Positions 12,520 through 46,280 of a stretch of DNA of 64,000 bases are shown here, piece by piece (within the stretch, counting starts at the first letter, position 1; every line of letters begins with the position of its first letter). The position numbers and the translations under genes are program-made. The notes beneath the pieces were generated by a model. That model was given only the letters and a program-made list of their open reading frames with translations. It was not told the DNA's origin and ran no database searches. This stretch comes from Methylophilus sp. Lineage in GTDB: Bacteria > Pseudomonadota > Gammaproteobacteria > Burkholderiales > Methylophilaceae. The stretch lies in NCBI GenBank assembly GCA_035423825.1, contig DAOMMM010000001.1:359516-423515 (forward strand). The letters are read 5' to 3'.

Positions 12520-13922
12520 GTGCGACAGGTGTACATCAGCAGCGTTGGCAAAGTCATATGCGTGATTGCCAGGAGATTCTACGCATCGTCGAACCATTGG
12601 AGATTGCCGGGCGTATCACAAAATTAACAGGATTGGTGATGGAGGCTGCTGGCATCAAATTGCCTGTCGGTTCAGCATGTTACGTACCTCTTGAGGATGG
12701 TCGGCGAGTCGAAGCCGAAGTGGTTGGATTCGATGGTGAAAAACTGTTGCTGATGCCGCAAAGTAGCGTAGATGGTATCGTGCCCGGAGCAAAAGTGTTC
12801 GCAATGAATGTGGCAGATGCCTTGCCAAAGCCTCATCACGACAACCCACCACGACGAAGAGCCTCCGACCGCGCTCGGCATTTGCCAGTAGGGGATGAAC
12901 TGCTGGGTCGTGTTCTCGATGGCGCAGGCAACCCATTGGATGAGCTGGGAAAAATAGTCACCAGCCATAGCGCGCCATTGAGTGCCAGGACCATTAATCC
13001 ATTGATGCGCGCACCCATTGAAGAAGTCCTGGATGTAGGCGTGCGCGCAATTAATGCGATGCTTACCGTAGGTCGTGGTCAACGCATGGGTTTGTTTGCC
13101 GGGTCAGGCGTGGGTAAGAGTGTCCTGCTGGGCATGATGGCACGTTACACAACGGCAGATGTGATTGTCGTAGGCTTGATTGGCGAACGTGGCCGTGAGG
13201 TGCAGGAATTCATCGAACACATTCTCGGCGCAGAAGGCTTGGCACGATCAGTTGTCGTTGCTGCGCCGGCGGATGCGCCTGCATTGCTAAGATTGCAAGG
13301 AGCTAACTACGCAACCACTATTGCAGAATATTTCCGCAGCCAGGGTAAGAATGTGTTGTTGATCATGGATTCGTTGACGCGGTACGCGATGGCACAGCGC
13401 GAGATTGCCTTGGCGATAGGCGAGCCACCGGCCACCAAGGGCTATCCGCCATCAGTGTTCGCCAAACTGCCTGCACTAGTAGAGCGTACGGGTAATGGCA
13501 AACGGGGTGAAGGTTCAATCACAGCATTCTATACCGTGCTTACCGAAGGCGACGACCAGCAGGACCCGATCGCTGATGCCGCGCGTGCGATTTTGGATGG
13601 CCATATCGTATTAAGCCGTAGCTTGGCAGAGAGCGGGCACTATCCAGCTATCGATATCGAGCAGTCTATCAGCAGAGCGATGCACAACATTACCAGCCCG
13701 GAACACCTGAAACTGGCGCTCAAACTTAAGCAGTTGAATGCTAAATATTCCAAGAGTATCGATTTGATCAACGTGGGAGCATATGAGCCAGGCAGTGACC
13801 TGGTATTGGATGAGGCGATCGCGAAGCATGATCAGGTTGCAGCTTTCCTGCAGCAGGATATCAATGAGCGGTCAGATGTGATGCAAAGCATACAACAGCT
13901 TGCAGGCGTACTTTATAGCTGA
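12516..13922 (+). CDS. fliI: flagellar export ATPase
   Basis: Walker A GSGVGKS; GERGREV; [22 protein letters not shown]. Confidence 0.97.
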
Positions 13923-16392: not shown

Positions 16393-16941
16393 TTGGCTTC
16401 CAAAACAGTCCCAGTCGCAGAGCTCAGAAGCCTATTGGCAGCGGTTTCCGACCATGGGAAGCAGCATCTTATCGAAGTTGAGGCAGACCTGGTACAAACG
16501 GCGTTCTTATTGTCTGAAGCAATTGAAAAACTAGGTGAAAGCTTTATGAAGATCCATGAGGCCGTCACGACACAACAGGCAGAGATCGAATCGTTGCTGT
16601 GCGAAGCAAACCTTCCAGAAAACTATTTTCAGAAAATCACTCAATATCGGGAAAAAATTGCCGATAACGTGAATGCGGCCATTACGGGCCTGCAGTTTCA
16701 AGATATGACAAGTCAGCTTATCACCCGAACAATCAATCGCGTCAATGGATTACAGGATTCATTGGCGGCTTTGGCTTTGCATGGCGAGGAGATGGATCCC
16801 GAGCATGAACATGAAGAGATTGCCCGGCTCCTGGATGCGATGAGCGCAAAGTTGAGTGCGCACAATGATGTCATCAAAGGCAAATTACGCAAATCAGTGA
16901 CACAGCAGGACATGACTTCCGGTGAAGTGGAGTTGTTTTAG
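16393..16941 (+). CDS. helical chemotaxis-associated protein with CheZ-like FQDxTxQ motif
   Basis: GLQFQDMTSQLI resembles CheZ AQDFQDLTGQVI; ends GEVELF; first gene before cheY-cheA. Start codon uncertain. Confidence 0.6.
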   Translation: MASKTVPVAELRSLLAAVSDHGKQHLIEVEADLVQTAFLLSEAIEKLGESFMKIHEAVTTQQAEIESLLCEANLPENYFQKITQYREKIADNVNAAITGLQFQDMTSQLITRTINRVNGLQDSLAALALHGEEMDPEHEHEEIARLLDAMSAKLSAHNDVIKGKLRKSVTQQDMTSGEVELF

Positions 16942-17404: not shown

Positions 17405-19732
17405 ATGTCTGTCGATATGAGTCAATTTTACGAGGTCTTCTTCGATGAGTCAGAAGAACTCCTGGCAGAAGCCGAGCGCTTATTGCTGCAGCTCGACATC
17501 GAGAACCCTGATGCGGAAGATTTGAATGCGATATTCCGGGCAGCCCATTCCATTAAAGGTGGCGCAGCCACCTTTGGCTTTATGGATATGGCAGAAATCA
17601 CCCACGTGCTGGAGAATCTGCTGGACAAGATCCGCAAGCATGAAATGGTGCTCACCTCAGATCATGTCGATGCGTTCCTTGCTGCCAAGGACGTGCTGAA
17701 AATGGAACTTGACGGTCATCGCCTGGCAACGGATGTAGACCAGGATCAGGTAGCCAATGTGAAAATGACACTTAAATCTCTGGCTGATGCGGGAGGCTTG
17801 GAAATTAAGGCTGTACCGGCAATCGAGGCGCCAGTTCCAGCATCAGAGCCTGCGGTAAATTCATCCCATGCACCACAGACGGATGCTGAAGCAGCACATT
17901 CCTCTGGCTCAACAGTATTTAACATAGCCTTGCCAGAAGTGTCCGAAAAAGACCTGAATAATCTTAAAGAAGAGATTGGCCTGCTTGGGAATGTGGTTGC
18001 AAGCAAGCAGGAAAATGGGCGTTACCTGCTCACACTTACAACAGAAGATTCGACGCAGTCAGATATTGTCTCGATCTGTTCATTTGTTCTGAACCCTAAT
18101 GATTTGGTCATTACAACATCTGCAGCCGCTGCAGTAAAAACAGAGACTGCTGAAGCAGTCCCAGTTCCTGCTAAAGAGATAGCTGAGGCGGATCCAGGAT
18201 ATGGATTTTTTGATGATGCTCCGATTGCAGGCCAGCATACAGATGCAAATGAAAAGGTCAAGGTGGCAGAAGAGGTCGGTTATGGCTTGTTCGCTGCAAA
18301 CGGCAAAGATAAAGAAGAAGAGGGTTATGGCCTGTTCGCCCCATTCACACCACATAAAGATGCGGTCAAAACCGAGCTCATCGGCGATGATACGCCGGTC
18401 AGTGCGGAAGCTAAAGCAGCCTCTGTTTCTGAAGTCAAAGCGTCGCCTGCAGTAACTACTGAAACCAAAGATGCAAATACCGCACCTGCGACAGAGAAGA
18501 AAAATCTCGGCCGCCGCGAAACAGACAAGGCGCCTGCCAGCGCAGAGACAAGCTCCATTCGCGTGGGCGTGGAGAAGGTGGATCAACTCATCAACCTGGT
18601 GGGCGAACTGGTGATTACGCAGGCAATGATCGAGCAACGCGTCAGCAAGCTCGACCCGATTGAAAACGAAGCGTTGATCAACAGCATCAGTCAACTGACA
18701 CGCAACACCCGTGACCTGCAGGAATCGGTCATGTCCATCCGCATGATGCCGATGGATTTCGTGTTCTCACGCTTCCCGCGCATGGTGCGCGATTTAGCTG
18801 CAAAACTAGGTAAGAAGGTGGAACTGGTGACCGTCGGTGCTACCACAGAACTGGATAAAGGCTTGATAGAGCGTATCGTTGATCCGCTGACGCATTTGGT
18901 TCGCAACAGTGTCGACCATGGCATTGAAGTGCCGGAAAAACGCAGGGCTGTGAATAAGTCCGAAACAGGTCGCCTAACACTCACAGCAGCCCATAAAGGC
19001 GGCAGTATCGTCATCGAAGTCACGGACGACGGCGCTGGTTTGAACCGTGACAAGCTTCTTGCCAAGGCGCAAGCCAATGGATTATCTGTCAGCGAAAACA
19101 TGACTGACAGTGAGGTGTTCAACCTGATCTTTGCGCCAGGTTTTTCCACTGCAGAGGTAGTGACCGATGTCTCCGGCCGTGGGGTCGGTATGGATGTCGT
19201 TAAACGTAATATCACAGCGATGGGCGGCTCGGTAGAGATCCGTTCCGCGTTGGGTTTTGGTACCACGATCTCCATCGCATTGCCGTTAACGCTGGCTATC
19301 CTGGATGGCATGTCCGTATCTCTGGGCCAGAACATCTATGTGATCCCGCTCAACCTGATAGTCGAAACCATGCAGCCGAGGATGGAAGATATCAAGACTG
19401 TGACCAACGAAGGTTTGATGGTACATGTGCGCGGCGAATACCTGCCGATCATCCCGCTCTATGCCTTGTTCAAGCAGGATACCGAAATCATGCACCCTAC
19501 CGAAGGCGTATTGCTGATCATTGAGGCAGAGGGTAAAAAGGCAGCCCTTTTCGTGGATGCGCTGGTTGGCCAGCAGCAAGTGGTCATCAAGAGCCTGGAA
19601 ACCAATTTCAGGAAAATCCAAGGTGTTTCGGGGGCGACCATCATGGGCGATGGCTCGGTCGCATTGATCCTCGACGTGCCGACCGTCATCAAAATGGGAC
19701 AAAACAATCTTAAAGAAGGAGTTTACCAATGA
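17405..19732 (+). CDS. cheA: chemotaxis histidine kinase
   Basis: P1 [11 protein letters not shown]; [21 protein letters not shown]; [16 protein letters not shown]; [10 protein letters not shown]; P5. Confidence 0.97.
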
Positions 19733-20235
19733 GTATCAACACTGAAGTGAGCGCAGAAAAAAGTGGCGCAGGCGTCTCGATGAACGCACAGGAATTTCTT
19801 ACTTTCGTCTTGGGTGATGAGTCATATGGTATAGATATCCTGAAAGTGCAGGAGATTCGCGGCTACGATGCAGTCACTAAAATCGCCAATACGCCGGATT
19901 TCATCAAAGGCGTCGTCAATCTGCGAGGGCTGATTGTGCCTATCGTTGATTTGCGCATCAAATTCGGCTTGGGCAAGGTAGTGTATGACGAATTTACTGT
20001 CGTCATTATCCTGAATCTAGGCGGCAGAGTGGTAGGCATCGTGGTGGATGGTGTGTCCGATGTCATGAACCTAAATGATAGCCAAATTCGCACCGTACCG
20101 GATATCGTGGCCAGCATCGATACGAAGTACATCACCGGTCTGGCTACTGTGGACAACAAGATGTTCATCCTGGTCGATATCGAGCAACTGATGAACAGCC
20201 AGGAAATGGAACTACTGGACAGCACCATTCATTAA
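19729..20235 (+). CDS. cheW: coupling protein
   Basis: [30 protein letters not shown]. Confidence 0.96.
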
Positions 20236-20263: not shown

Positions 20264-22861
20264 ATGTTTGCCAACATCATCAATTACCTTTCCAGCAAAA
20301 CTGCCCTTACTCGCCAGATGGTGGACGAGATCACTGAGTTCCGTACTTTGAAGAAAGAGATCAACAAGGCGCGTTGTGTATTGGAATTCAATGCAAATGG
20401 TTCAATCACATTCGTGAATGAGAACGCGCTGAAGTCTCTCGGTTACGCAGAATCGGAATTGCTGAACGAGCATCACCGTGTGTTGATTGATCGCGAAGAG
20501 AGCGGTTCTTCCAAGTATGAGATTTTCTGGGAGAACCTCGCCGCAGGCATCACCCAAACCGGTCAGTTCAAGCTCAAAGACAAGAAGGGGTCGGTAGTTT
20601 GGTTCCAGGGCTATTACGCCCCTGTCATCAATGCGGCACACAAACTGGTCAAGGTGGTCTGTTATCTGACAGATATCACGGCTGACAAGGCCAGGGCGCT
20701 TGTGCTGCAAGGTGAAGATGAGGCGCTTAATCAAACCTTCGGCGTCATGGAATGCGACATGAACGCCAACATCATCGACTGTAACGAGCTTTTTATAAAA
20801 CCGTTGGGCTATGTCAAAGAAGAGATTATTGGCAAGAACGTCAGCTTTATCCTGCCGCCCGGTGTAGCAGACAGCGCAGAATACAGAGCTATGTGGCAAA
20901 AGCTCAATGCAGGCCAGTCAGTGACAAGGGAAATCAAACGTATCAGTAAGGACCGCAAGGAATACTGGTTCCAGTCGTCTTACGTGCCGGTCCATGATGA
21001 ACATGGTAAGCCATATAAGGTAGTGGTGTATTCTTATTGCATCACGGAACAGAAACTCAAGAATGCAGACTATGAGGGCCAGTTAAAAGCTATTCACAAG
21101 ACTCAAGGGGTCATTGAGTTTGACCTGACAGGGAAGATCATTGCGGTGAATGAGAACTTTGCTGCGGTAACCGGTTACAGCGAGAAAGAGATCGTCGGTA
21201 ACCACCACAGCATGTTTGTGGAATCTTCCTATAAGAACAGTAATGAATATAAGGCGTTTTGGGATAAGCTTGCACGGGGTGAAGCAGAAAGTGGCCAAAT
21301 TCATCGTATAGGCAAGGGCGGTAAGCAGATTTGGCTGCAGGCTACTTACAACCCAATATTTGATATGAACGGCAAGCCTTACAAAGTAGTGAAATACGCT
21401 ACTGACATCACAGCGGAGAAACTCAGGAACGCCTTTTTCGAAGGGCAGCTGGCGGCTATCAACAAAACTCAGGGGGTGATAGAGTTCGACATGACAGGGA
21501 AGATCATTGCGGTGAATGAGAACTTTGCTGCGGTGACTGGCTACAGCGAAAAAGAGATCGTCGGTAACCACCACAGCATGTTTGTAGAACCAGCCTATAA
21601 GAACAGCCATGAATACAAAGCCTTCTGGGATAAACTGAACCGTGGCGAAGCAGATATTGGCCAATATAAACGTATCTGCAAAAGTGGTAAAGAGGTTTGG
21701 CTGCAAGCTATCTATAACCCGATTATTGATATGAATGGCAAACCGTTCAAGGTCGTGAAGTATGCAACGGATATCACCGAACAACATAACAGTGCAGTCG
21801 CGTTGGAAAATGCTGTAAATGAATCACAAGCAGTGATTCAGCAAGCCAAAGAAGGCGATTTGACTGAGCGTGTTTCCTTGCAAGGCAAAACAGGTGCGAT
21901 TGCGCAGCTTTGCGAAGGCATCAATGCATTGATGGATAAGTTCGCCGAAGTCGTGATTCAGGTAAAAGAAGCAGGTGAAACTATTAATACAGCAGCGGGC
22001 GAGATATCTAGTGGCAATAATGATTTGTCCGGTCGAACCGAGCAACAAGCTTCGAATCTGGAAAAAACCGCCTCCAGCATGGAAGAGCTCGCTTCTACCG
22101 TGAAGCAGAACGCCGACAACGCCAAACAGGCCAACCAGCTGGCGGCTGCGGCCTCCGGTGTGGCGGTGAAAGGTGGTGAAGTGGTGGCCAATGTGGTAAC
22201 CACCATGAGCGAGATCAATGAAAGCTCCCGCAAGATTGAGGATATCATCAGCGTCATCGATGGCATCGCCTTCCAGACCAACATTCTCGCCCTTAACGCC
22301 GCGGTGGAAGCCGCCCGTGCGGGTGAACAAGGCCGCGGCTTTGCCGTCGTAGCCGGTGAGGTGCGCAACCTGGCGCAACGCTCAGCCTCTGCTGCCAAGG
22401 AGATTAAAGAATTGATCACTGATTCCGTCAACAAGACCGCCGAAGGTACCAAGCTGGTAGAAGATGCGGGCAAGACCATGGAGGAGATCGTTTCTTCTGT
22501 ACAGCGCGTCACCGACATCATGGGCGAGATCTCTGCTGCATCTAGCGAGCAGAGTGCTGGTATCAACCAGGTAAATGATGCAATCACCAGCATGGATGAA
22601 GTGACCCAGCAAAACGCCGCACTGGTGGAAGAAGCGGCTGCTGCGGCAGAGTCTTTGGTGGAACAGGCCGCCAGCCTGATGGACACTGTGAATGGATTCA
22701 CTGTGCGTGGCGGTGCAACAGAACGACGCGCTGCAAATAGTCCGATGCGCAGGCCAGCTAGCCATGCGCCTGTTGCGTCAAGACAGCAGCAAACACCTAA
22801 ACCTGCCAAACCGGCTTCTTTGAAGACAGGCACAGACGATGGCGAATGGGAAGAGTTTTAA
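20264..22861 (+). CDS. soluble chemoreceptor, 4 PAS + HAMP + MCP signalling domain, EWEEF tail
   Basis: No TM segments; four PAS/PAC repeats; [30 protein letters not shown]; C-term GEWEEF. Confidence 0.92.
21098..21780 (+). repeat. intragenic tandem duplication of PAS3/PAS4 (366-nt period)
   Basis: Units start at 21098 and 21464 and share long identical nt runs such as ACAGGGAAGATCATTGCGGTGAATGAGAACTTTGCTGCGGT. Confidence 0.85.
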
Positions 22862-23105: not shown

Positions 23106-24413
23106 ATGGCTGATATAAATGATTGCTTGACGCTGTTCACCAAAGCTTTTGATAGTGTTGGCGGAGCCGTGGATGTCCTGGTACTGAAGGATGGCCAAGG
23201 CCGATGGATGGCGGTCAATGAAAAGACCAAGCAACTATTCGCCTTGCAAGCAGTTGATTGGTATGGAAAAACGGATACAGAGCTAGCGAAGTTGCATCCT
23301 ATGATGGCGGACATGCTGGAAAGCTGTACGAAGAATGATGAATACACCTGGAGTAGCAGGCAATTGCATGTGTTTGAAAAAACCTTCAGACATGAAGAAG
23401 ATGTATTCGAGTTCGAGATGCGTAAATCGCCGGTATTCGACAGTGAAGGCAAGCGCAAGGTGCTGATCACTATTGGCAACGATATCACCGAGCGTAAACG
23501 GGCAGAGCGTGATATGCGTGTCGCGGAAAAAGCCTTTGATTCTCTGGATGCGATTATCGTGACAGACGCAGACAAACGCATCATCCGCGTCAACAATACG
23601 TTTAGCCGGCTCACGGGCTACATGGAAGATGAGGTGCTAGGCAAGACCCCGGCGGTCCTGAAATCCGGACGACATGATGCCGCTTTTTATCAGAAAATGT
23701 GGGAGACACTCCACGAAAAAGGGGTGTGGCGGGGCGAGATCTGGGATAAGCGCAAGAATGGTGAGATTTATCCAAAATGGCTGTCCATCAGTGCAGTGAC
23801 TGGAGAGGATGGAACTATCCAGAACTATGTTGGAACGTTCAATGATTTGAGCGGACAGGTCGATGCCAAAGAGGCGATTCATCGCATGGCTTTCTATGAT
23901 TCACTGACGAATGTGGCTAATCGCAGGCTATTGAACGACCGCTTGAACGATGCCTTAGCTAATAGTGTTTGCAACCAGCATTTTGGGGCGGTGTTGATGC
24001 TGGATGTCGATAATTTCAAGCTAATTAACGACACCTACGGCCACGAGGCCGGCGATTATTTTCTGATAGAGGTGGCGCGCCGCTTGCGCTACTGCACTCG
24101 TGAAGAGGATACCGTGGCCAGGTTGGGTGGGGATGAGTTCGTGATATTGCTGGAGTTTCTCAGTCAGGACGCCGAGGAAGCAGAAAGGCAAGTCAGAGTA
24201 GTGGCCGAAAAAGTGCTGAACGAGATTCGCAAATCTTTCCTGATCAATGGCATTGAGATTCGCACATCGGTCAGTTTGGGAATCAGCATGTTCACGTCCC
24301 CTCATCTGCCGAGTGATGAGATGCTGCGCAGGGCAGATGCAGCGATGTATCGTGCAAAATCTTCCGGACGAGACCGGTTCTGTTTTTTTGCCATAGAGAG
24401 GCAAATGCAGTAA
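23106..24413 (+). CDS. PAS-PAS-GGDEF diguanylate cyclase
   Basis: Two PAS domains; LDVDNFKLINDTYGHEAGD; REED I-site 5 aa before GGDEF; AADAAMY-type end (RADAAMYRAK). Confidence 0.92.
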   Translation: MADINDCLTLFTKAFDSVGGAVDVLVLKDGQGRWMAVNEKTKQLFALQAVDWYGKTDTELAKLHPMMADMLESCTKNDEYTWSSRQLHVFEKTFRHEEDVFEFEMRKSPVFDSEGKRKVLITIGNDITERKRAERDMRVAEKAFDSLDAIIVTDADKRIIRVNNTFSRLTGYMEDEVLGKTPAVLKSGRHDAAFYQKMWETLHEKGVWRGEIWDKRKNGEIYPKWLSISAVTGEDGTIQNYVGTFNDLSGQVDAKEAIHRMAFYDSLTNVANRRLLNDRLNDALANSVCNQHFGAVLMLDVDNFKLINDTYGHEAGDYFLIEVARRLRYCTREEDTVARLGGDEFVILLEFLSQDAEEAERQVRVVAEKVLNEIRKSFLINGIEIRTSVSLGISMFTSPHLPSDEMLRRADAAMYRAKSSGRDRFCFFAIERQMQ

Positions 24414-24656: not shown

Positions 24657-27600
24657 ATGAAAATCAACATGCCGGTGACTGACCACGAAGTGGAATTAAA
24701 AGAAGGTCAAATGATCGTTTCAAAGACCGATCTGAAAGGCCGGATCAGCTTCGTGAACCAGGATTTCATAGAAATCAGCGGTTTCTCCGAAGAAGAGCTG
24801 ATCGGCCAAAGCCACAACATCGTACGTCATCCGGATATGCCTCCCGAGGCCTTTGAGGATTTGTGGACGACCGTGAAATCCGGCAAGCCCTGGATCGGTA
24901 TCGTCAAGAATCGCTGCAAGAACGGCGATTTCTATTGGGTGGAAGCGATTGTTTCCCCTACCCGTGATAGCGGCCAGGTAAACGGATACATCTCGGTACG
25001 CAGAAAAGCCAGCCGTGAGCAGATTCGCGGTGCGATGGCATTCCACCGCAAAATCAAAGAAGGGCAATCAGGATGGGTTGCCGTGATGGGCAAGCTTAAG
25101 AGAGCCAAAAGTCACATCAAAATCAAACATCGCCTGATAAGTATAGCCTTAGCTATGGTAGTGACGACAGTATTTGTTGGTTGGGTTGGCCTGTCAGGCA
25201 TGAATGATACCAATAAGTCACTTTCGACTGTTTATAACGACCGTGTTGTGCCATTGCAGCAACTAAAAATAGTGGCAGATATGTATGCAGTCAATATCGT
25301 CGATACATCCCACAAGGTGCGCAACGGTACCATAAGCTGGGAGCAAGGCGAGCAGAATGTGGAAGCCGCACTGCTTGAAGTGAATAAACAATGGAAGGCC
25401 TACACATCGTCCTACCTGGTGCCTGAGGAGCAGAAGCTCATCAAGGAGATCGAGCCCCTATTTGTCGACGCCAAGCGTGTCACTGCCGATTTGCAAAGCA
25501 TCATGCGTACTCACGATGCAAAACGCATGGTCAGTTTTACTACGAGTGAGCTCTATCCTGCAATTGATCCAATCTCATCCAAACTCAACGAGTTAATCGA
25601 TATTCAGCTAAAAGTCGCTAAACAAGGGTATCTTGAAGCATACGATGATTATAGTTTCCACCGCAATTTGGTAATAGGATTAACGACCTTGGGTTTCATT
25701 GTTGTAGGTTTGTTGAGCTGGTTCTTATATCAAACTATTATTCCGCGTATCCGGTTGGCTGTAGATTATCTAACGGCCAGTGCACAAGGTGATTTACATG
25801 AGCCTGTCATTCGCACCGGACATCGCGATGAGATGACCGACGTGTTGGATGCCTATCGTGCGTTGAGGTCGCGCCTGGATTTCGATCATACCGAGACAGT
25901 AGCTGGCATCGAACGCATCAAGTCTGCACTGGACAACGCGACTATTCCTGTGACTGTCAGCAACGAGCATAACAACTTGATTTACATGAATAAATCCTGC
26001 GTAGATCTATGGAAGCGCATGAGTGGCGATGTGGCTAAATACCATACCGGATTCGCGGTCGATGCGATGATAGGTACCAAGGTTGGCCAATATCTGCAGA
26101 ATGAGCAGGATCGCGTAGCATTCGCCAAGCCATTGGAAAGCGCGCGCTTTATGGATACGCAGATAGGAAGCCGTCATCTGAGTCTGGTACTGAACCCTGT
26201 CTATGATAAAGCAGGCAAATACCTTGGCCGCATGACACAATGGAACGACCGTACTGCAGAGGTGATTGCAGAGCAAGAAGTCGCGCGTCTGGTGCAAGAG
26301 GCGGTGGAAGGCAATCTGGCAGAGCGTGTGGATACAGCCATCTTGCCCGAAGGCTTTATCCGTGACACAGGCGATGGCATCAATCACATGCTGGATGCCG
26401 TGATTGGCCCGTTGAACGTAGCTGCCCGATATGTGGATGACATCTCCAAGGGCAACATCCCGGCGAAGATCACCGATGAATACAAAGGCGACTTCAACAC
26501 CATCAAGCAGAACCTCAACACTTGTATCGATGCGGTGAACGCACTTGTGGCCGATGCCAATATGCTGTCACAGGCCGCAGTGGAAGGGCGTCTGGAGACC
26601 CGTGCCGATGCCAGCAAGCACCAGGGCGACTTCCGCAAGATCGTCCAAGGGGTGAACGAGACACTGGATGCCGTGATCGGCCCGTTGAACGTAGCAGCGC
26701 AGTATGTGGATGACATCTCCAAGGGCAACATCCCGGCGAAGATCACCGATGACTACAAAGGCGACTTCAACACCATCAAACACAACCTCAACACCTGTAT
26801 CGATGCGGTGAACCGCCTGGTGAACGATTCTGCGATGCTGGCGGATGCTGCGCATGAAGGCAAGGTCTCTACCCGTGCCGATGCCACCCAGCATCAAGGA
26901 GACTTCCGCAAGATTGTGGAGGCGATGAATGAGACCCTAGAAATGATTGTCGGTCCGATTGGGGCGGTGAAGGTGGCAGTCGAGACCATCAACACGGCAT
27001 CCAAGGAGATTGCCCAGGGCAACGCCGACCTGAGCCGCCGTACCGAAGAGCAGGCTGCTTCTCTCGAGAAGACGGCTGCCAGCATGGAAGAACTGGCCTC
27101 AACGGTGAAACAGAACGCCGACAACGCCAAACAGGCCAACCAGCTTGCAGCGGCAGCCTCCGGTGTTGCCATCAAGGGTGGTGAGGTCGTCTCCGACGTC
27201 GTCACTACCATGAGCGCCATCAACGACAGCGCCAAGAAGATCGAAGACATCATCAGCGTCATCGACGGCATCGCCTTCCAGACCAACATCCTCGCCCTTA
27301 ACGCCGCGGTGGAAGCCGCCCGTGCGGGTGAACAGGGCCGCGGCTTTGCTGTGGTGGCCGGCGAGGTGCGCAACCTGGCCCAACGCTCCGCATCAGCTGC
27401 CAAAGAGATCAAGGAACTCATCTCCGACTCAGTCAGCAAGACTGCCGAAGGCACCAAACAAGTCGAGAATGCCGGTGAGACCATGCAAGAGATCGTCACC
27501 TCTGTCCGACGCGTCACCGACATCATTGCCGAGATTGCAGCCGCTTCACAAGAGCAGACTGCGGGCATTGACCAGGTGAATGAAGCCGTGATGAAGATGG

Positions 27601-27863
27601 ACGACATGACGCAGCAGAACACTGCCCTGGTGGAAGAAGCGGCAGCGGCTGCGGAAAGCCTGATGGAACAGGCCGACGAACTGATGAACGCGGTGAGCGT
27701 GTTCCAGCTGGAAGGTGAGTCCACTCGCGTGGAACGTCGTGCCCACAACAGCCCGATGCGTAACAGCACACCGGCAAGAACGATTGAGCAAGCTTCAACC
27801 ACTCCTTCTGCCAAGACTACCGTCAAGACCGGTACTAATGACGAAGAATGGGAAGAGTTTTAA
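24657..27863 (+). CDS. multi-input chemoreceptor: Aer-type PAS, TM-4HB-TM, HAMP, Aer2-type PAS, poly-HAMP, MCP signalling, EWEEF
   Basis: [38 protein letters not shown]; two TM helices; IKSALDNA...QWNDRT; signalling hairpin; EEWEEF. Confidence 0.9.
26391..26936 (+). repeat. intragenic 273-nt (91-aa) tandem repeat of di-HAMP units
   Basis: CTGGATGCCGTGAT... at 26391 and 26664; [29 protein letters not shown] occurs twice. Confidence 0.85.
26904..27861 (+). repeat. 958-bp direct repeat, copy 1 (receptor signalling domain and tail)
   Basis: No mismatch seen against 29627-30584 (offset 2723); alternative-frame ORFs in the two copies are also identical. Confidence 0.92.
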
Positions 27864-27946: not shown

Positions 27947-30586
27947 ATGATGAAAATGACAGTCGCGAAAAAAATGTTGATGTTGACCTTGGTGTCAGTG
28001 GTAGGGCTGGTTTGCTTGCTGACGTTAAGCCAGCACCAGATGGAAAAGGTTTTTAATGAAACCAATTATGCCAATAGCAATATAGCGCCAAGTATCGTAT
28101 TGATTGACAAGATACGTTATGACTTTAACACCTTACGCATCCGCTTATCCAACCACACGATGAATACGGATGCCGCAAAGATGGCAGAAGTCGAGGTAGC
28201 GATCAGGAAGCTTCAGGAACAACTTTCAAGTTCGTTGAAAGAGTACGAGAAATACACCAGTGATGAGCAGGACAGGCAGATGCTGGAGGCCGACAAGGCT
28301 GGCTTGAATGTGTATTACGAGCGTATGCAGCCGATATTGAATGCCTCGCGCCAGAATAAAAAAGACTTGGCCAAAGAACTCTTTATTGCGATACGCATGC
28401 CTGCCGAACAAGCGAACAAGGATATGGCGGCACATATGGATTACAAGGTGAAGTTGGGCCAGACAATTGCTCAGGATGCCGTTGAAGTCAAGGAAAGTGC
28501 TACCAAGTTCTCGATGGTTATCGGGGTCATTATTTTGCTGGCGACTGCGGTAATCGGGTTCATGATTACTCGTAACTTGAAGAAACAACTTGGCGGTGAG
28601 CCTAGTGAAGCTGCGGAAGTGGCAAACAGCATCGCTCAAGGTGAATTGAACACTGTCATTAAGCTTGAAAAAGATGACAAAACGAGCCTGATGGCGGCGA
28701 TGCATAGCATGCAGCAGACACTCAAGGCGGTGATAGAAGAACAGACTGTCATGTCTGCAGAAAACAAGGCAGGCAATATCAGCGCAGCGATCGATGCGAA
28801 TAAGTTCCGCGGCAGCTATAAAACCATGGCGCAGAACGTCAATGAAATGGCGTCTAACCAGGCGGATGTGATGCGCAAGGTCACTGCTTGTATCTCGGAA
28901 TTCTCCAAAGGCAACTTTGATGCGCCATTGGAGAAGTTCCCGGGTCAGCGTGCATTCATTAATGAAGGTGTTGAGGGGCTACGCAGCAATGTGAAAACCT
29001 TCATCACGGATATGCAGCATATGTCTCAAGAACATGATGCTGGTGATGTTGATGTACGGATTGACGAAACCAAGTATCAGGGTGCGTATGCAGAGATGGT
29101 GCACGGTGTGAATAGCATGGTGGGTGCACACGTGCAGGAAAAAGCCGAGATGATTCAAGTGATGAGATCATTAGGTGATGGTGATTTTGCAGTTCAAATC
29201 CAGCAATACCAAGGCAAGAAAGCTGAGATCAATCAAAATCTGGACAGGCTCAAAGGCAAACTCAAAGGCATTCTGGATTCTGTGAAATGGGTGACTAACG
29301 AACATGCGCAAGGCAATATCGATATGACATTGCATGCGCATATGTTCAAAGGCGGCTTCAGTGAATTGGCTAGCGCTGTGAATACTATTGTGGCCGGCCA
29401 GATTGAATTGACAGAAAAGGCCTTGGCCTGCGTCAAGGAATTTGGCGAAGGTAATTTTGATGCGCCGCTGGAAAAATTCCCAGGCAAGAAAGCGTTTGTG
29501 AACGAGGCGATCGAACAGGTGCGCAGCAATCTCAAGACGTTGAATGAAGATGTCCAGATGCTCTCGGAGGCTGCGAACAATGGCCGTGTCTCAGTACGTG
29601 CCGATGCCAGCCGCCACAACGGCGATTTCCGCAAGATTGTGGAGGCGATGAATGAGACCCTAGAAATGATTGTCGGTCCGATTGGGGCGGTGAAGGTGGC
29701 AGTCGAGACCATCAACACGGCATCCAAGGAGATTGCCCAGGGCAACGCCGACCTGAGCCGCCGTACCGAAGAGCAGGCTGCTTCTCTCGAGAAGACGGCT
29801 GCCAGCATGGAAGAACTGGCCTCAACGGTGAAACAGAACGCCGACAACGCCAAACAGGCCAACCAGCTTGCAGCGGCAGCCTCCGGTGTTGCCATCAAGG
29901 GTGGTGAGGTCGTCTCCGACGTCGTCACTACCATGAGCGCCATCAACGACAGCGCCAAGAAGATCGAAGACATCATCAGCGTCATCGACGGCATCGCCTT
30001 CCAGACCAACATCCTCGCCCTTAACGCCGCGGTGGAAGCCGCCCGTGCGGGTGAACAGGGCCGCGGCTTTGCTGTGGTGGCCGGCGAGGTGCGCAACCTG
30101 GCCCAACGCTCCGCATCAGCTGCCAAAGAGATCAAGGAACTCATCTCCGACTCAGTCAGCAAGACTGCCGAAGGCACCAAACAAGTCGAGAATGCCGGTG
30201 AGACCATGCAAGAGATCGTCACCTCTGTCCGACGCGTCACCGACATCATTGCCGAGATTGCAGCCGCTTCACAAGAGCAGACTGCGGGCATTGACCAGGT
30301 GAATGAAGCCGTGATGAAGATGGACGACATGACGCAGCAGAACACTGCCCTGGTGGAAGAAGCGGCAGCGGCTGCGGAAAGCCTGATGGAACAGGCCGAC
30401 GAACTGATGAACGCGGTGAGCGTGTTCCAGCTGGAAGGTGAGTCCACTCGCGTGGAACGTCGTGCCCACAACAGCCCGATGCGTAACAGCACACCGGCAA
30501 GAACGATTGAGCAAGCTTCAACCACTCCTTCTGCCAAGACTACCGTCAAGACCGGTACTAATGACGAAGAATGGGAAGAGTTTTGA
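27947..30586 (+). CDS. transmembrane chemoreceptor: TM-4HB-TM, HAMP, poly-HAMP, MCP signalling, EWEEF
   Basis: Two TM helices flanking a helical periplasmic domain; [12 protein letters not shown] repeated; signalling domain identical to the previous gene. Confidence 0.92.
29627..30584 (+). repeat. 958-bp direct repeat, copy 2
   Basis: Matches 26904-27861; diverges at the stop codon (TGA vs TAA). Confidence 0.92.
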
Positions 30587-30647: not shown

Positions 30648-30674
30648 TCAAGGAGCGTTATTTTTAACCGATAG
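30648..30674 (+). promoter_or_regulatory. sigma28 promoter upstream of the fae paralogue and cheRDB
   Basis: TCAA(30648-51)-N15-ACCGATAG(30667-74). Confidence 0.7.
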
Positions 30675-30933: not shown

Positions 30934-31569
30934 ATGGCAGTGATTGATAGAGTATTGATTGGTGAAGGACTTGTGATTGAAGACCGTCCAGACGGCACAG
31001 GCCCTGATTTGAAGAACGTAGCGCATATTGATTTGATTATGGGTCCACGTGGCAGTGCGGCGGAAGATGCTTTCTGCCGCACATTGACCGACCAGAAGCA
31101 AGGCGTGAATGGTTTGCTGGCGATTGCGGCACCTAACATGATGGTGAAACCCAACACCGTGATGTTCAATAAAGTGACGATTAAAGACGGACGTCAAGCC
31201 GTTCAGATGTTTGGCCCTGCGCAACGTGGCGTCGCCATGGCGGTAATGGATTGTGTCGCGGACGGCACGATTCCGGTTGAAGAAGCCGATGATGTTTTTA
31301 TCTGCGTTGGCGTATTCATCGACCATAAAGCGGATATTGACGAGCGCATTCAGGATTGGAATTACAGAGCAACCAAAATGGCGATCAAGAGTGCGGTGAA
31401 GCGTGAACCTAAAGCAGCTGAAGTATTGAAGCATTATAAAGAGGCATCTCACCCATTTGCGGCAAAAACAGCCGAGACCAAGAACCGCCGTGCCGAGGAT
31501 AAAGCCGTTGAATTGGCGATTGAGCAGATGAAGGAACGCAGCAAGCACATGCAACGTGAGACTGTGTAA
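30934..31569 (+). CDS. fae: formaldehyde-activating enzyme (Fae) paralogue with loop insertion and C-terminal extension
   Basis: [58 protein letters not shown]...EP, SHPF; AGGAG RBS. Confidence 0.92.
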
Positions 31570-31622
31570 GAGTTCAGCTTAAAAGCTGTGTGTTTTAGGT
31601 TTTGTAGTAACGAAAGCGTTTG

Positions 31623-32519
31623 ATGTTAAAAGAAAAAAATCAGGAAGAACGGGAGTTTGAATTTACGCCTCTGGATTTTTCCAGAGTGCGTAAATTGATT
31701 TACCAGCGTGCCGGCATTTCGCTTTCAGAGGCCAAAACCGACATGGTCTACAGCCGTATCGGCAGAAGACTGCGCACGATAGGGCTGGATTCGTTCAAGG
31801 AGTATCTGGACTATCTGGAAGGAGAGGGACATCCTGAGGAGTGGGAAGCGTTCACTAATTCGCTGACTACGAATCTGACTTCTTTCTTTCGTGAGGAGCA
31901 TCACTTTCCTATTTTGGCAGAGCATCTGCTTCAGCTAAAAAAACCTATTCGGATATGGTGTTCTGCCGCATCGACTGGCGAGGAACCTTACACTATTGCC
32001 ATGACGGCTTGTGAGGCTTTTAATTCGCTGAAGCCGCCTGTCGAGATCATCGCGACAGATATCGATACCAATGTGTTGGCGACGGCTGCAAGAGGGGTTT
32101 ACCCACTTGATCGTATCGCCAAGCTGCCTCTCGAACGCAAAAAACAGTTTTTCCTGAAAGGGTCAGGCAAGAGTGAGGGATCAGTTAAAGTCCGCAAAGA
32201 GCTGCAGCAGCTTATCCAGTTTCAACAATTGAATCTGCTGGATGACAAGTATCCATTGAACGAACCGTTTGATGCGATATTTTGCCGGAATGTCATGATC
32301 TATTTCGATAAACCTACGCAAACAAAGATTTTGGAGAAGTTCGTGCCTTTAATGAAGCCACATGCACTATTGTTTGCAGGGCATTCCGAAAACTTTCTCT
32401 ATGTTTCGGATGCGTTAAGACTGCGTGGGAAAACCGTGTATGAACTGGCAGATGCTGCGGGCAGTTCTTCACTGCCGAGAATGGCTGCGAGTAAGTTCAA
32501 GAAAGTAGGCTATGGCTAA
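31623..32519 (+). CDS. cheR: chemotaxis methyltransferase
   Basis: NSLTTNLTSFFREEHHF, IWCSAASTGEEPY, FCRNVMIYFD. Confidence 0.96.
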   Translation: MLKEKNQEEREFEFTPLDFSRVRKLIYQRAGISLSEAKTDMVYSRIGRRLRTIGLDSFKEYLDYLEGEGHPEEWEAFTNSLTTNLTSFFREEHHFPILAEHLLQLKKPIRIWCSAASTGEEPYTIAMTACEAFNSLKPPVEIIATDIDTNVLATAARGVYPLDRIAKLPLERKKQFFLKGSGKSEGSVKVRKELQQLIQFQQLNLLDDKYPLNEPFDAIFCRNVMIYFDKPTQTKILEKFVPLMKPHALLFAGHSENFLYVSDALRLRGKTVYELADAAGSSSLPRMAASKFKKVGYG

Positions 32520-33123
32520 TTTTGTTCATGAAGAGATTTCAACCACGCTCTACTACGACAGAACGTTTGATTGTGATGCGGCCAAGATATCGCCCGGGGA
32601 ATATTACTATACCGACAAGGACATGGTGATTGTTACCGTGCTGGGTTCATGTGTTTCAGCCTGCATACGCGACAAGGTTTCTGGTGTTGGCGGTATGAAT
32701 CATTTCATGTTGCCTGATGGCGGCAAGGCGGACAAGGATACTCCTGTATCTGAATCCATGCGCTATGGCACTTATGCGATGGAGGTGCTGATTAACCAAC
32801 TGCTCAAGAACGGCGCCAGGCGGGAAAACCTTGAAGCCAAGATATTTGGTGGCGGTAATGTCTTGAGAAGTTTTACCACCATGAACGTGGGTGACCGTAA
32901 TGCTGATTTCGTGAGGAATTATCTGAAAGAGGAGCGCATCAAGGTGACTGGTGAAGACTTGAACGATATATATCCTCGCAAAGTGTATTTCTTTCCTAAG
33001 TCAGGGCGTGTATTGGTGAAGAAGCTCAAACAGCTCAACAACTATACATTGATGAAACGTGAAGACGCTTACGCCAATAAGCTCAAAACGAACGATGTTG
33101 GCGGCGAAGTGGATCTGTTTTGA
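32512..33123 (+). CDS. cheD: receptor deamidase
   Basis: TVLGSCVSAC, GGMNHFMLP, RYGTYAMEVLIN, AKIFGGG. Confidence 0.95.
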   Translation: MANFVHEEISTTLYYDRTFDCDAAKISPGEYYYTDKDMVIVTVLGSCVSACIRDKVSGVGGMNHFMLPDGGKADKDTPVSESMRYGTYAMEVLINQLLKNGARRENLEAKIFGGGNVLRSFTTMNVGDRNADFVRNYLKEERIKVTGEDLNDIYPRKVYFFPKSGRVLVKKLKQLNNYTLMKREDAYANKLKTNDVGGEVDLF

Positions 33124-33141: not shown

Positions 33142-34212
33142 ATGAAGATTAAAGTATTGGTGGTGGATGATTCAGCCTTGATTAGAAGTCTGTTGACGGA
33201 AATCATCAACAGCCAATCGGATATGCAGGTTGTCGGTGTAGCACCAGACCCTATTGTGGCACGTGAGATGATTAAGCAACTAAATCCCGATGTGCTGACG
33301 CTAGATGTAGAAATGCCAAAAATGGACGGGCTGGACTTTCTGGAGCGGTTGATGCGCTTGCGGCCGATGCCGGTGGTGATGGTGTCAACGCTGACAGAAC
33401 GTGGGTCAGAGATTACTTTGCGCGCGTTGGAATTGGGTGCAACAGATTTCGTCACCAAACCAAAAATGGCTATCAGCGATGGTATGCGGGAGTACACAGA
33501 CCTGATTGCGGATAAGATTCGTGCCGCTTCACAGGCAAGAATCAGCACATTGCATCGTTCGCTCAAGGCCAATGAAGATAAGTCGAATCCTGTTGCACTA
33601 AGGAATCCCATGGTGAGCAGTGAGAAACTGATTATCATCGGTGCATCTACCGGAGGCACAGAGGCCATCAAAGCTTTCCTGACCAAGATGCCTTCTGACT
33701 GCCCTGGCATTTTGATCACACAGCATATGCCTGCTGGTTTTACGAAATCATTTGCGAATCGATTGAACTCACTGTGCCAGATTTCAGTAAAAGAAGCCGT
33801 AAACGGCGAACGTATTTTGCCTGGACATGCATATATCGCCCCCGGGGACCAGCATTTGTTACTTGCCAGAAGTGGCGCCAACTACGTTACCCAGCTTAGC
33901 GATGCTGCACCAGTCAGCCGCCACAAGCCTTCCGTGGATGTCCTGTTCGAGTCTGCAGCTGTTGCCGCAGGCAAAAACGCCATTGGGGTAATCATGACGG
34001 GTATGGGCAAGGATGGTGCAGAAGGCATGGCCAAGATGAAAACTGCCGGTGCCTACAATTTTGCGCAGGATGAAGCGAGCTGTGTCGTGTTTGGCATGCC
34101 GAAAGAGGCAATTGCGCATGGCGGAGTTGATGAGACGCTACCTTTGGAAGAACTGCCGAAACAAGTGTTGAGCCACTTGGTAGAGAGTGGGACACGCGCT
34201 TTGCGTGTTTAA
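33142..34212 (+). CDS. cheB: methylesterase (REC + CheB)
   Basis: [33 protein letters not shown]. Confidence 0.96.
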
Positions 34213-34239: not shown

Positions 34240-34266
34240 TCAAGTTTTTTCAGATTTGACCGATAT
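34240..34266 (+). promoter_or_regulatory. sigma28 promoter of cheY-cheZ
   Basis: TCAA-N15-ACCGATAT. Confidence 0.7.
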
Positions 34267-34349: not shown

Positions 34350-34739
34350 ATGGCTGACCCAAATACCAAATTTTTAGTCGTCGATGATTTTTCAACCATG
34401 CGCAGGATTGTGCGCAACTTGTTGAAGGAACTCGGCTATACCAACGTGGAAGAAGCGGAAGACGGTGTGGATGGCCTAAATAAGCTTAAACAGGGAGGCT
34501 ACGATTTTGTGGTTTCTGACTGGAACATGCCGAATATGGATGGCTTGACCATGCTGCAGAACATTCGCGCTGACTCAGCGCTGGCTTCAATCCCGGTATT
34601 GATGGTGACAGCAGAGGCGAAAAAGGAAAACATCATTGCAGCGGCTCAGGCAGGTGCGAGTGGTTATGTCGTGAAACCATTTACTGCGGCAACTCTCGAT
34701 GAAAAGCTTTCAAAGATTTTTGAAAAGCTTGGAAAGTAA
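34350..34739 (+). CDS. cheY: CheY (enteric-type, copy 2)
   Basis: [37 protein letters not shown]. Confidence 0.96.
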
Positions 34740-35417
34740 GTGATCAATATGAAGAACGTAGTGCCAGATAACTCAGAGAACAGTGCTGCGCATTTTATGG
34801 GTATTCCCTCCGATGATGGGGAGATGCTAAGCCGCATAGGCCATATGACCAGGGGCTTGCATGAGAGTTTGCGAGCCCTGGGACTGGACAAGATGATTGA
34901 AAAGGCGGCGCAAGATATCCCGGATGCCCGCGATAGATTGAGTTATGTTGCCAGGATGACCGAACAAGCAGCCGACCGAGTGTTGAATGCGACCGATATC
35001 GCAAATCCATTGCAAGATGAGCTTGCCAAACAAGCTGCAGCATTGGAGGCGAAATGGAAGGAAGTGCTGAAGGTTCCGTCCTTGAAATCCGAATATAACG
35101 AGGCAGCAGAAGAAACGCTCGCATTTATCAGGCAAACTGTTGAAACCAGCACGGCGACCAAGGCGCAATTACTGGAAATCATGATGGCACAGGATTTTCA
35201 GGATTTGACAGGTCAGGTAATCAAAAAAATCACCCGATTGGCGCAAGACCTGGAGCAACAGTTGGTACAGCTGTTGGTGGACTTCTCTCCGGCGCCTAAC
35301 AAGAAAGAGGCTGATTCCTCTTTATTGAATGGGCCTCAAATCAATCCGGAAGAGAATGTGAATGTGGTGGCCAATCAAAGTCAGGTAGATGACCTTCTTG
35401 AGAGTTTAGGTTTCTAG
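34740..35417 (+). CDS. cheZ: CheY-P phosphatase
   Basis: IPDARDRLSYV, AQDFQDLTGQVIKK, QSQVDDLLESLGF. Confidence 0.95.
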   Translation: MINMKNVVPDNSENSAAHFMGIPSDDGEMLSRIGHMTRGLHESLRALGLDKMIEKAAQDIPDARDRLSYVARMTEQAADRVLNATDIANPLQDELAKQAAALEAKWKEVLKVPSLKSEYNEAAEETLAFIRQTVETSTATKAQLLEIMMAQDFQDLTGQVIKKITRLAQDLEQQLVQLLVDFSPAPNKKEADSSLLNGPQINPEENVNVVANQSQVDDLLESLGF

Positions 35418-46209: not shown

Positions 46210-46280
46210 TTTGGGTACCTCTCAAGTTTGGCTAGCGATAGCCGATATAGTCGTTAGGGTTCATCCTAACCTAATGCCAA

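Follow-up and report, generated by a model that had tools for sequence, protein, structure and literature searches.

A canonical-type formaldehyde-activating enzyme gene in a chemotaxis operon of Methylophilus and its conserved C-terminal extension

Members of the Methylophilaceae are major consumers of methanol and methylamine in lakes and sediments. In the genome of one of them, a Methylophilus sp. (assembly GCA_035423825.1; 2.15 Mb in 18 contigs, with three Fae homologues), a gene for formaldehyde-activating enzyme (Fae) is located among genes for chemotaxis. This raises the question of whether the enzyme has a part in the taxis machinery or is a metabolic protein whose gene stands in an unusual place. 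Since 2011, this gene order has been cited as an indication that Fae is involved in sensing or signalling. The consulted sections of two papers from the Chistoserdova group already contain both the adjacency and the proposal (PMC3728764; PMC4109929). There, fae is placed in the sensing/chemotaxis cluster of Methylotenera and of new Methylophilaceae isolates (Lapidus 2011 as cited in PMC3728764; PMC4109929), and a sensing or signalling role for Fae is credited in general terms to Kalyuzhnaya 2008 (as cited in PMC3728764). A first-pass annotation of the locus had suspected that the adjacency might not be new, and indeed it is not. A C-terminal extension of Fae is not mentioned in those sections, and it is this conserved, clade-specific extension that is the new element here.

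The stretch of DNA that was analysed, 64,000 nucleotides of contig DAOMMM010000001.1, is referred to below as the window. From its letters, the first-pass annotation had read the gene as a paralogue with an altered core that was co-opted as a sensor or adaptor. Our own reading, which we hold with moderate confidence, is that fae encodes an active canonical Fae, moved into the motility regulon and bearing a tail that would contact some partner.

The chemotaxis neighbourhood of fae

The gene lies between the receptor genes and cheR-cheD-cheB (Table 1), as had been annotated, and is preceded by an AGGAG ribosome-binding site 8 nt 5' of its start. The wider window also encodes FliF, FliI, a second CheY, CheA, CheW, FliL, FliM, FlgK and FlhC. 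Among the window ORFs that were scanned, fae was the sole metabolic gene, in a motility region spanning 60 kb or more. The others are flagellar or chemotaxis genes, and the annotation had rightly remarked that no H4MPT-pathway genes are present, these being located on another contig. Two smaller observations concern the same region. The two receptors encoded closest to fae are identical in protein sequence over at least their last 89 residues, with their tail and the EWEEF pentapeptide included, and a 182-aa ORF (16393-16941) 5' of cheY1-cheA matches CheZ with 26.2 bits, below the cut-off of 30.7.

Table 1. Position of fae, its parts and its neighbours in the window
Feature	Coordinates	Strand	Remarks
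cheA and cheW	17405..20235	+	
Chemoreceptor (PAS)	20264-22861		
PAS-GGDEF protein (cyclase)	23106-24413		among receptor genes
Chemoreceptor (PAS-4HB-HAMP-MCPsignal)	24657..27863	+	
Chemoreceptor (4HB-HAMP-MCPsignal)	27947..30586	+	EWEEF pentapeptide at end; directly 5' of fae
Sigma-28-like promoter motif, TCAAGGAG-N11-ACCGATA	30648..30673	+	286 nt 5' of fae start; consensus match
fae (formaldehyde-activating enzyme)	30934..31569	+	211 aa plus stop; matches to PF08714, TIGR03126 and 1Y5Y
Fae core, residues 1-178, ending HPFAAK	30934..31467	+	canonical sequence; 94 invariant columns; inside canonical clade
C-terminal extension, residues 179-211 (33 aa)	31468..31566	+	after HPFAAK
NRRAEDK motif, residues 184-190	31483..31503	+	only tail element common to all tail lengths
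Weak hairpin (5 bp, 3 G-C pairs), then T-rich run	31575..31588	+	between fae and cheR
cheR methyltransferase	31620..32519	+	probable ATG 31623; 50 nt past fae stop
cheD deamidase	32512..33123	+	
cheB methylesterase	33142..34212	+	
cheY and cheZ	34350..35417	+	

Conservation of the linkage, which the first-pass annotation had put forward as a check, was surveyed at 80 loci with one genome per species. The order mcp-fae-cheR-cheD-cheB-cheY-cheZ is found at 26 of 26 che-linked loci, from Methylophilus, Methylotenera and related Methylophilaceae MAGs. One more locus with the same tailed type of Fae (L013, the 27th) is on a contig that stops before cheR. At 51 of the surveyed loci, fae resides within the H4MPT cluster (Methylobacillus, Methylovorus, Ca. 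Methylopumilus, Methylophaga and others). The linkage is thus conserved, yet it could be so for neutral reasons: a rearrangement may have put fae in the che operon, where it would stay since it is hard to remove and the gene is needed, with the tail serving Fae itself in pentamer stability, cofactor-tail binding or turnover, unrelated to chemotaxis. We regard this alternative as somewhat unlikely. The apparently single origin of the linkage, discussed below, is in its favour, but it does not readily account for a lone metabolic gene within so long a run of motility genes, for a gene order kept while CheR fell to 67-80% identity, or for the tight packing in Methylophilus. In Methylophilus proper, 52-60 nt separate mcp from fae and 36-54 nt separate fae from cheR, the latter distance being 90-260 nt in Methylotenera.

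Signals for transcription are informative in part. A regex scan for the sigma-28-like pattern gave three hits in the window, all preceding motility genes, and 50 in the genome on both strands. Besides the motif 5' of fae, the window hits (TCAAG-N16-[AG]CCGATA) are at 34240, just 5' of cheY, and at 46222. The motif at 30648 is kept in the three closest relatives only, which counts against assigning fae to a motility regulon. As to the hairpin between fae and cheR, such sites are no commoner than in shuffled sequence, so transcription is likely, if unproven, to run on from fae into cheR. Published expression data point in two directions. According to the consulted sections of PMC3728764, fae of M. 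versatilis 301 (m301_0896) is up about tenfold in sediment together with the sensing/chemotaxis cluster (m301_0896-0902), a co-induction that speaks against a neutral passenger. The same sections have the che-linked fae of M. mobilis transcribed far below the other fae, which counts against an active Fae in the motility regulon (PMC3728764).

Family membership and phylogenetic position

The window protein matches Pfam PF08714 with 209.2 bits (cut-off 27 bits), in an alignment that covers positions 1-158 of the 159 in the profile, and TIGR03126 (one_C_fae) with 199.9 bits (cut-off 118 bits). Its alignment with the Fae of M. extorquens (1Y5Y) is gapless over residues 25-178 (E = 6e-58). In this alignment, H31, K80 and Q97 pair with chain positions 21, 70 and 87, which are His22, Lys71 and Gln88 once the initiator Met is counted, the residues named as catalytic in the first-pass annotation. 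All three are invariant in 35 of 35 aligned Fae sequences and are among the 94 invariant columns of that alignment. The annotation was therefore correct both in calling this a real Fae gene and in stating that the catalytic equivalents are kept. An AlphaFold2 monomer model had a mean pLDDT of 71.5. The Fae of Methylorubrum extorquens AM1 (PDB 1Y5Y/1Y60; 5,6,7,8-tetrahydromethanopterin hydro-lyase) thus shares with the window Fae its family, fold and catalytic equivalents, as well as an H4MPT pathway in the genome. In contrast, the window Fae has an N-terminal hairpin that is 9-10 residues longer, a trait common to all Methylophilaceae Fae, and a 33-aa C-terminal tail, and its gene is found in a che operon rather than in an H4MPT cluster.

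To which kind of Fae the protein belongs is evident from a maximum-likelihood tree (IQ-TREE, core columns only). The che-linked Faes are nested inside the canonical Fae of Methylophilaceae H4MPT clusters, with all 28 che-linked rows on one side of one branch (support 62). The clade has a stem of 0.035 substitutions per site and short end branches, and its rates are not accelerated. Given the branch support, the tree is compatible with one origin of the che-linked clade, and it looks like one. Fae2-like and HPLAAHDY-type sequences fall outside the canonical clade. The window Fae is a member of that canonical ("true") clade, as opposed to Fae2, Fae3 and the 60-64% subtype, and shows 83-85% identity to Fae from the H4MPT clusters of Methylobacillus, Methylovorus and Ca. 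Methylopumilus. Tree and identity together rule out a divergent paralogue. Judged by its sequence, the window gene is a canonical Fae and not a remodelled paralogue, and the term "paralogue" in the first-pass annotation has to be given up.

The same holds for the segments that had been singled out as peculiar to the che-linked copy. The 9-aa loop that was said to be added (RPDGTGPDL; RPDGxGxDL) is also found where Fae is encoded in an H4MPT cluster, in Methylobacillus, Methylovorus and Ca. Methylopumilus, and in the second fae copy of the genome studied here. QKQGVNG, described as altered, is invariant in all 35 Fae sequences, Methylophaga included, with the exception of Q56. FIDHK, likewise described as altered, is present in H4MPT-linked Methylophilaceae Fae. 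Because the H4MPT-linked Methylophilaceae Fae share all three, these are features of the lineage, and they were discarded as che-specific marks. What survives of the original observation is therefore the gene, its neighbours, the catalytic residues and the tail, and what falls is the special status of the loop, QKQGVNG and FIDHK and the classification as a paralogue.

A co-opted enzyme with an altered core is also difficult to reconcile with the short stem, with a core dN/dS of about 0.05 (approximate), with the 94 invariant columns and with the fact that the protein is often the sole canonical Fae. On the same grounds, the window protein most likely still works as a metabolic Fae. The codon bias of fae is ordinary (Nc 49.9, 35th percentile), which fits a moderately expressed enzyme; it resembles that of the che neighbours and of mch/mtdB and is unlike that of hps, transaldolase and the Fae2-like gene. 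With the core unaltered, and with no other canonical Fae in many of the genomes, any additional role must come on top of catalysis. This canonical core, frequently the only one in a genome, would also suit a neutral passenger.

A pathway that uses the product of Fae is present in the genome, with mch, mtdB and cofactor genes on contig C5. There mch (438 bits) lies near mtdB, three ATP-grasp genes, a CitG-like gene, a GHMP-kinase-like gene and pabB. The C5 cluster has no fae between hpi (SIS) and orf1, the position between the hps/hpi genes and orf1 at which 51 other loci carry it. As a separate observation, H4MPT clusters of Methylobacillus and Methylovorus contain tandem second fae copies (L033:6720, L036:6707, L051:394 and L053:6720), whose products are extended at the N-terminus by some 30 residues that begin with MSILDK(I/L)FGLFG.

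The remaining two homologues differ in their closeness to the window Fae. One is a second canonical-type fae (C1:516549-517097, minus strand), flanked by an ammonium transporter gene and ispD/ispF. Its product of 182 aa, which sits on a long end branch (0.37), is 74% identical to the window Fae and retains 88 of the 94 invariant columns. It could be the metabolic copy in this genome, which counts against the reading of the window gene as an active Fae. In the other tailed-Fae genomes listed, no second Fae above about 64% identity was found except a 147-aa fragment in one genome (G112). The tailed Fae is the only match above the Fae2/Fae3 level in 7 of 10 other Methylophilus genomes, in agreement with the statement, in the consulted sections of PMC4109929, that M. 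methylotrophus ecotypes have one Fae and that its gene is inside the conserved chemotaxis cluster. The fae genes of the chemotaxis clusters of Methylotenera and Lake Washington Methylophilaceae (mmol_1253, m301_0896) are described in the consulted literature with the same placement and as the canonical ("conserved") subtype; the window fae is their orthologue, and its genome differs from those strains in the extra canonical-type copy on C1. The other homologue is a Fae2-like gene on contig C2 (C2:232626-233177), a member of the same Pfam family, as Fae2 and Fae3 are. It has Met at the His31 position and keeps 38 of the 94 columns, and the window Fae is not of that type. The codon bias of this Fae2-like gene is very strong (Nc 40.4, 2nd percentile), which suggests that it is highly expressed.

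The C-terminal extension

What does distinguish the che-linked Faes is the sequence that follows HPFAAK. A tail is present on all of them (26 loci and L013) and absent from 50 of 52 H4MPT-linked Faes. All 27 tailed Faes continue past HPFAAK with [NK]RR[ASTV]x[DN] and then with zero to two charged helices, giving tails of 9 to 58 residues. In short Methylotenera Faes (187-190 aa), the tail ends after the motif (KRRATDK), with about 10 tail residues. The window Fae and its relatives (208-213 aa) have the motif and one charged helix, while Methylophilus proper and some Methylotenera (227-235 aa) have a second copy of the helix. In the 20 long tails, N6, R7, R8 and D11 (tail-alignment numbering) are invariant, as are an A, an I, a Q and an R. 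For the first tail unit, pN was 0.13 against a saturated pS of 0.67 in moderately diverged pairs, which indicates purifying selection that is weaker than in the core. AlphaFold2 predicted a helix at residues 187-209 with modest confidence. The helical tail of about 33 residues carrying RRAEDK in the first-pass annotation is thus borne out, and it is specific to the che-linked clade apart from two short forms.

Those two forms belong to H4MPT-cluster Faes (L025:1183-1755 and L099:4028-4600), which end in KRRAGDK and SRRAEDN, so that the motif is not strictly tied to a che context. Moreover, with a che-linked clade that looks like a single origin, the association of tail and che context amounts to one evolutionary event and not to 27. 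The two H4MPT-cluster cases and the wide range in tail length would be expected of a tail that serves Fae itself, as the neutral alternative has it, although 50 of 52 H4MPT-linked Faes function without one. One Methylotenera genome (G079) has no F7 che cluster and a tail-less Fae, and was considered as a natural experiment. Its Fae is of a second, non-che subtype (SVHPFAAK, like L038 and L045), hence it provides no example of tail loss after che loss and was set aside.

Several explanations of the tail could be dismissed. A tail profile run against 1.84 billion representative proteins returned five fragments of Fae and, by chance, a single eukaryotic repeat, but nothing else, and therefore the tail is not a docking module common to other proteins; in this genome, too, the helix motif is unique. 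No Pfam or NCBIfam domain matched the tail and the aromatic pentapeptide is absent from it, nor was any other recognisable Che-binding module (receptor-like tail, CheW-like domain) found there. An amphipathic helix for membrane targeting is ruled out as well, since 15 of the 33 tail residues carry a charge and the mean hydrophobicity is -0.6; a tail so strongly hydrophilic is not a membrane anchor. The three window receptors have ERRA[AH]NSPMR right after the signalling domain, and it was considered whether the Fae tail imitates, or is left over from, the C-terminal segment of a receptor. The Smith-Waterman comparison of the tail with the receptor tails in the RRA region was not significant against 2000 shuffles. 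Nor do the two vary together, as the fae-adjoining receptors of Methylophilus proper are without the ERRA motif while their Faes keep the tail motif. This candidate, too, was rejected.

The motif itself might be a site for a small ligand or a modification that is common to other motility proteins, either an RxxD-type contact for c-di-GMP or a basophilic phosphorylation-like site. A PAS-GGDEF cyclase is encoded among the receptor genes, which would suit the c-di-GMP version, and three of the nine RR..D[KR] sites in the proteome are RRAEDK in Fae, RRETDK in the P2-P3 linker of CheA and RRRASDR in FliI, the latter two being conserved in relatives. We nevertheless consider this very improbable. 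The motif is short, the pattern was picked after the data had been seen, and the count is that of chance (9 against 8.9 expected), an agreement that also sits well with a neutral passenger. About 10 residues separate the CheA site (GRRETDK, window 18512-18529, residues 370-375) from the P3 dimerisation domain that follows it. The site is kept as RRE[STAG]DK in Methylophilus, in Methylotenera and in certain further genera, three tail-less genomes included, and the homologous patch reads KKEAEK or KREVPK in the remaining ones; it is thus a K/R variant of a family-wide patch. The FliI site (PRRRxxDRxRH, window 12855-12872, residues 114-119), between the N-terminal and ATPase domains, occurs in 27 of 27 Methylophilaceae genomes, whatever the Fae tail. 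With a universal FliI site and a variable CheA patch, there is no clean co-variation with the Fae tail, and a micro-motif RRxxD[KR] linking FliI, CheA and Fae was rejected as a finding.

Metabolic enzyme, contact and sensing

Our preferred reading, that of an active Fae in the motility regulon, would unfold as follows. The protein would be a catalytically competent canonical Fae that converts formaldehyde and H4MPT to methylene-H4MPT. Its gene would have left the slot in the H4MPT cluster in an ancestor common to the Methylophilus/Methylotenera group and lodged between a chemoreceptor gene and cheR, by which its expression would be tied to the motility/chemotaxis regulon, possibly through sigma-28. 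In the same lineage, Fae carries its C-terminal extension, an invariant basic-acidic RR-x-x-D/N motif with zero, one or two charged helices, which is maintained by selection. From the Fae pentamer, five of these tails would protrude and, we infer, make protein contact with some partner; the conserved tail, in other words, may mediate contact.

Whether that partner could be part of the chemotaxis machinery is a further step. In this alternative, the receptor array, or else CheR, CheD, CheB or CheA, would be bound by the tailed pentamer, whose formaldehyde, H4MPT or methylene-H4MPT state would alter their activity and thereby lead to metabolism-linked taxis to C1 compounds. We hold it to be unlikely. 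More doubtful still is the specific claim that it is the five charged tails which dock on the array or on an adaptation enzyme, with Fae reporting C1 flux directly to chemotaxis. For a sensor or adaptor, one can point to the placement in an adaptation operon, conserved in at least two genera, and to a tail that is clade-specific, under selection and on no other protein family found. Metabolic enzymes are also known to modulate chemotaxis elsewhere, as PTS enzyme I acts on CheA and fumarate reductase acts on FliG. Against it, none of the leads examined pointed to a partner, the tail is not significantly similar to the receptor tails and does not vary with the receptors, two H4MPT-linked Faes also carry the short motif, and Methylotenera retains only about 10 tail residues. 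In addition, the core bears no sign of a new function and the linkage is apparently of single origin. In the literature searched, no experiment was found on contact of Fae with a receptor or Che protein, or on a taxis phenotype.

Formaldehyde taxis with a cytoplasmic sensor does exist in another methylotroph. Methylobacterium aquaticum 22A performs this "formtaxis" through MtpA, a soluble cytoplasmic chemoreceptor, and not through a Fae-type protein; fae1, fae2 and hgd are dispensable, with taxis persisting in their absence (PMC10613068). It follows that such taxis occurs in methylotrophs, but that this system provides no support for a Fae-based sensor. The question of sensing is narrowed to the only feature that is specific to the che-linked clade, the short selected extension of RRxxD and charged helices. 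If docking by the tail were true, the first enzyme to encounter formaldehyde in the cytoplasm would be a sensor for formaldehyde or methylotrophic taxis in the Methylophilaceae. If, on the other hand, the tail were irrelevant to taxis, the arrangement would be no more than a case of a housekeeping gene that has ended up among motility genes in one operon.

A minor observation concerns the structure database, where PDB 8UB7 chain B, named Avd and 290 residues long, contains a full Fae sequence at residues 136-289 and is presumably an engineered fusion.
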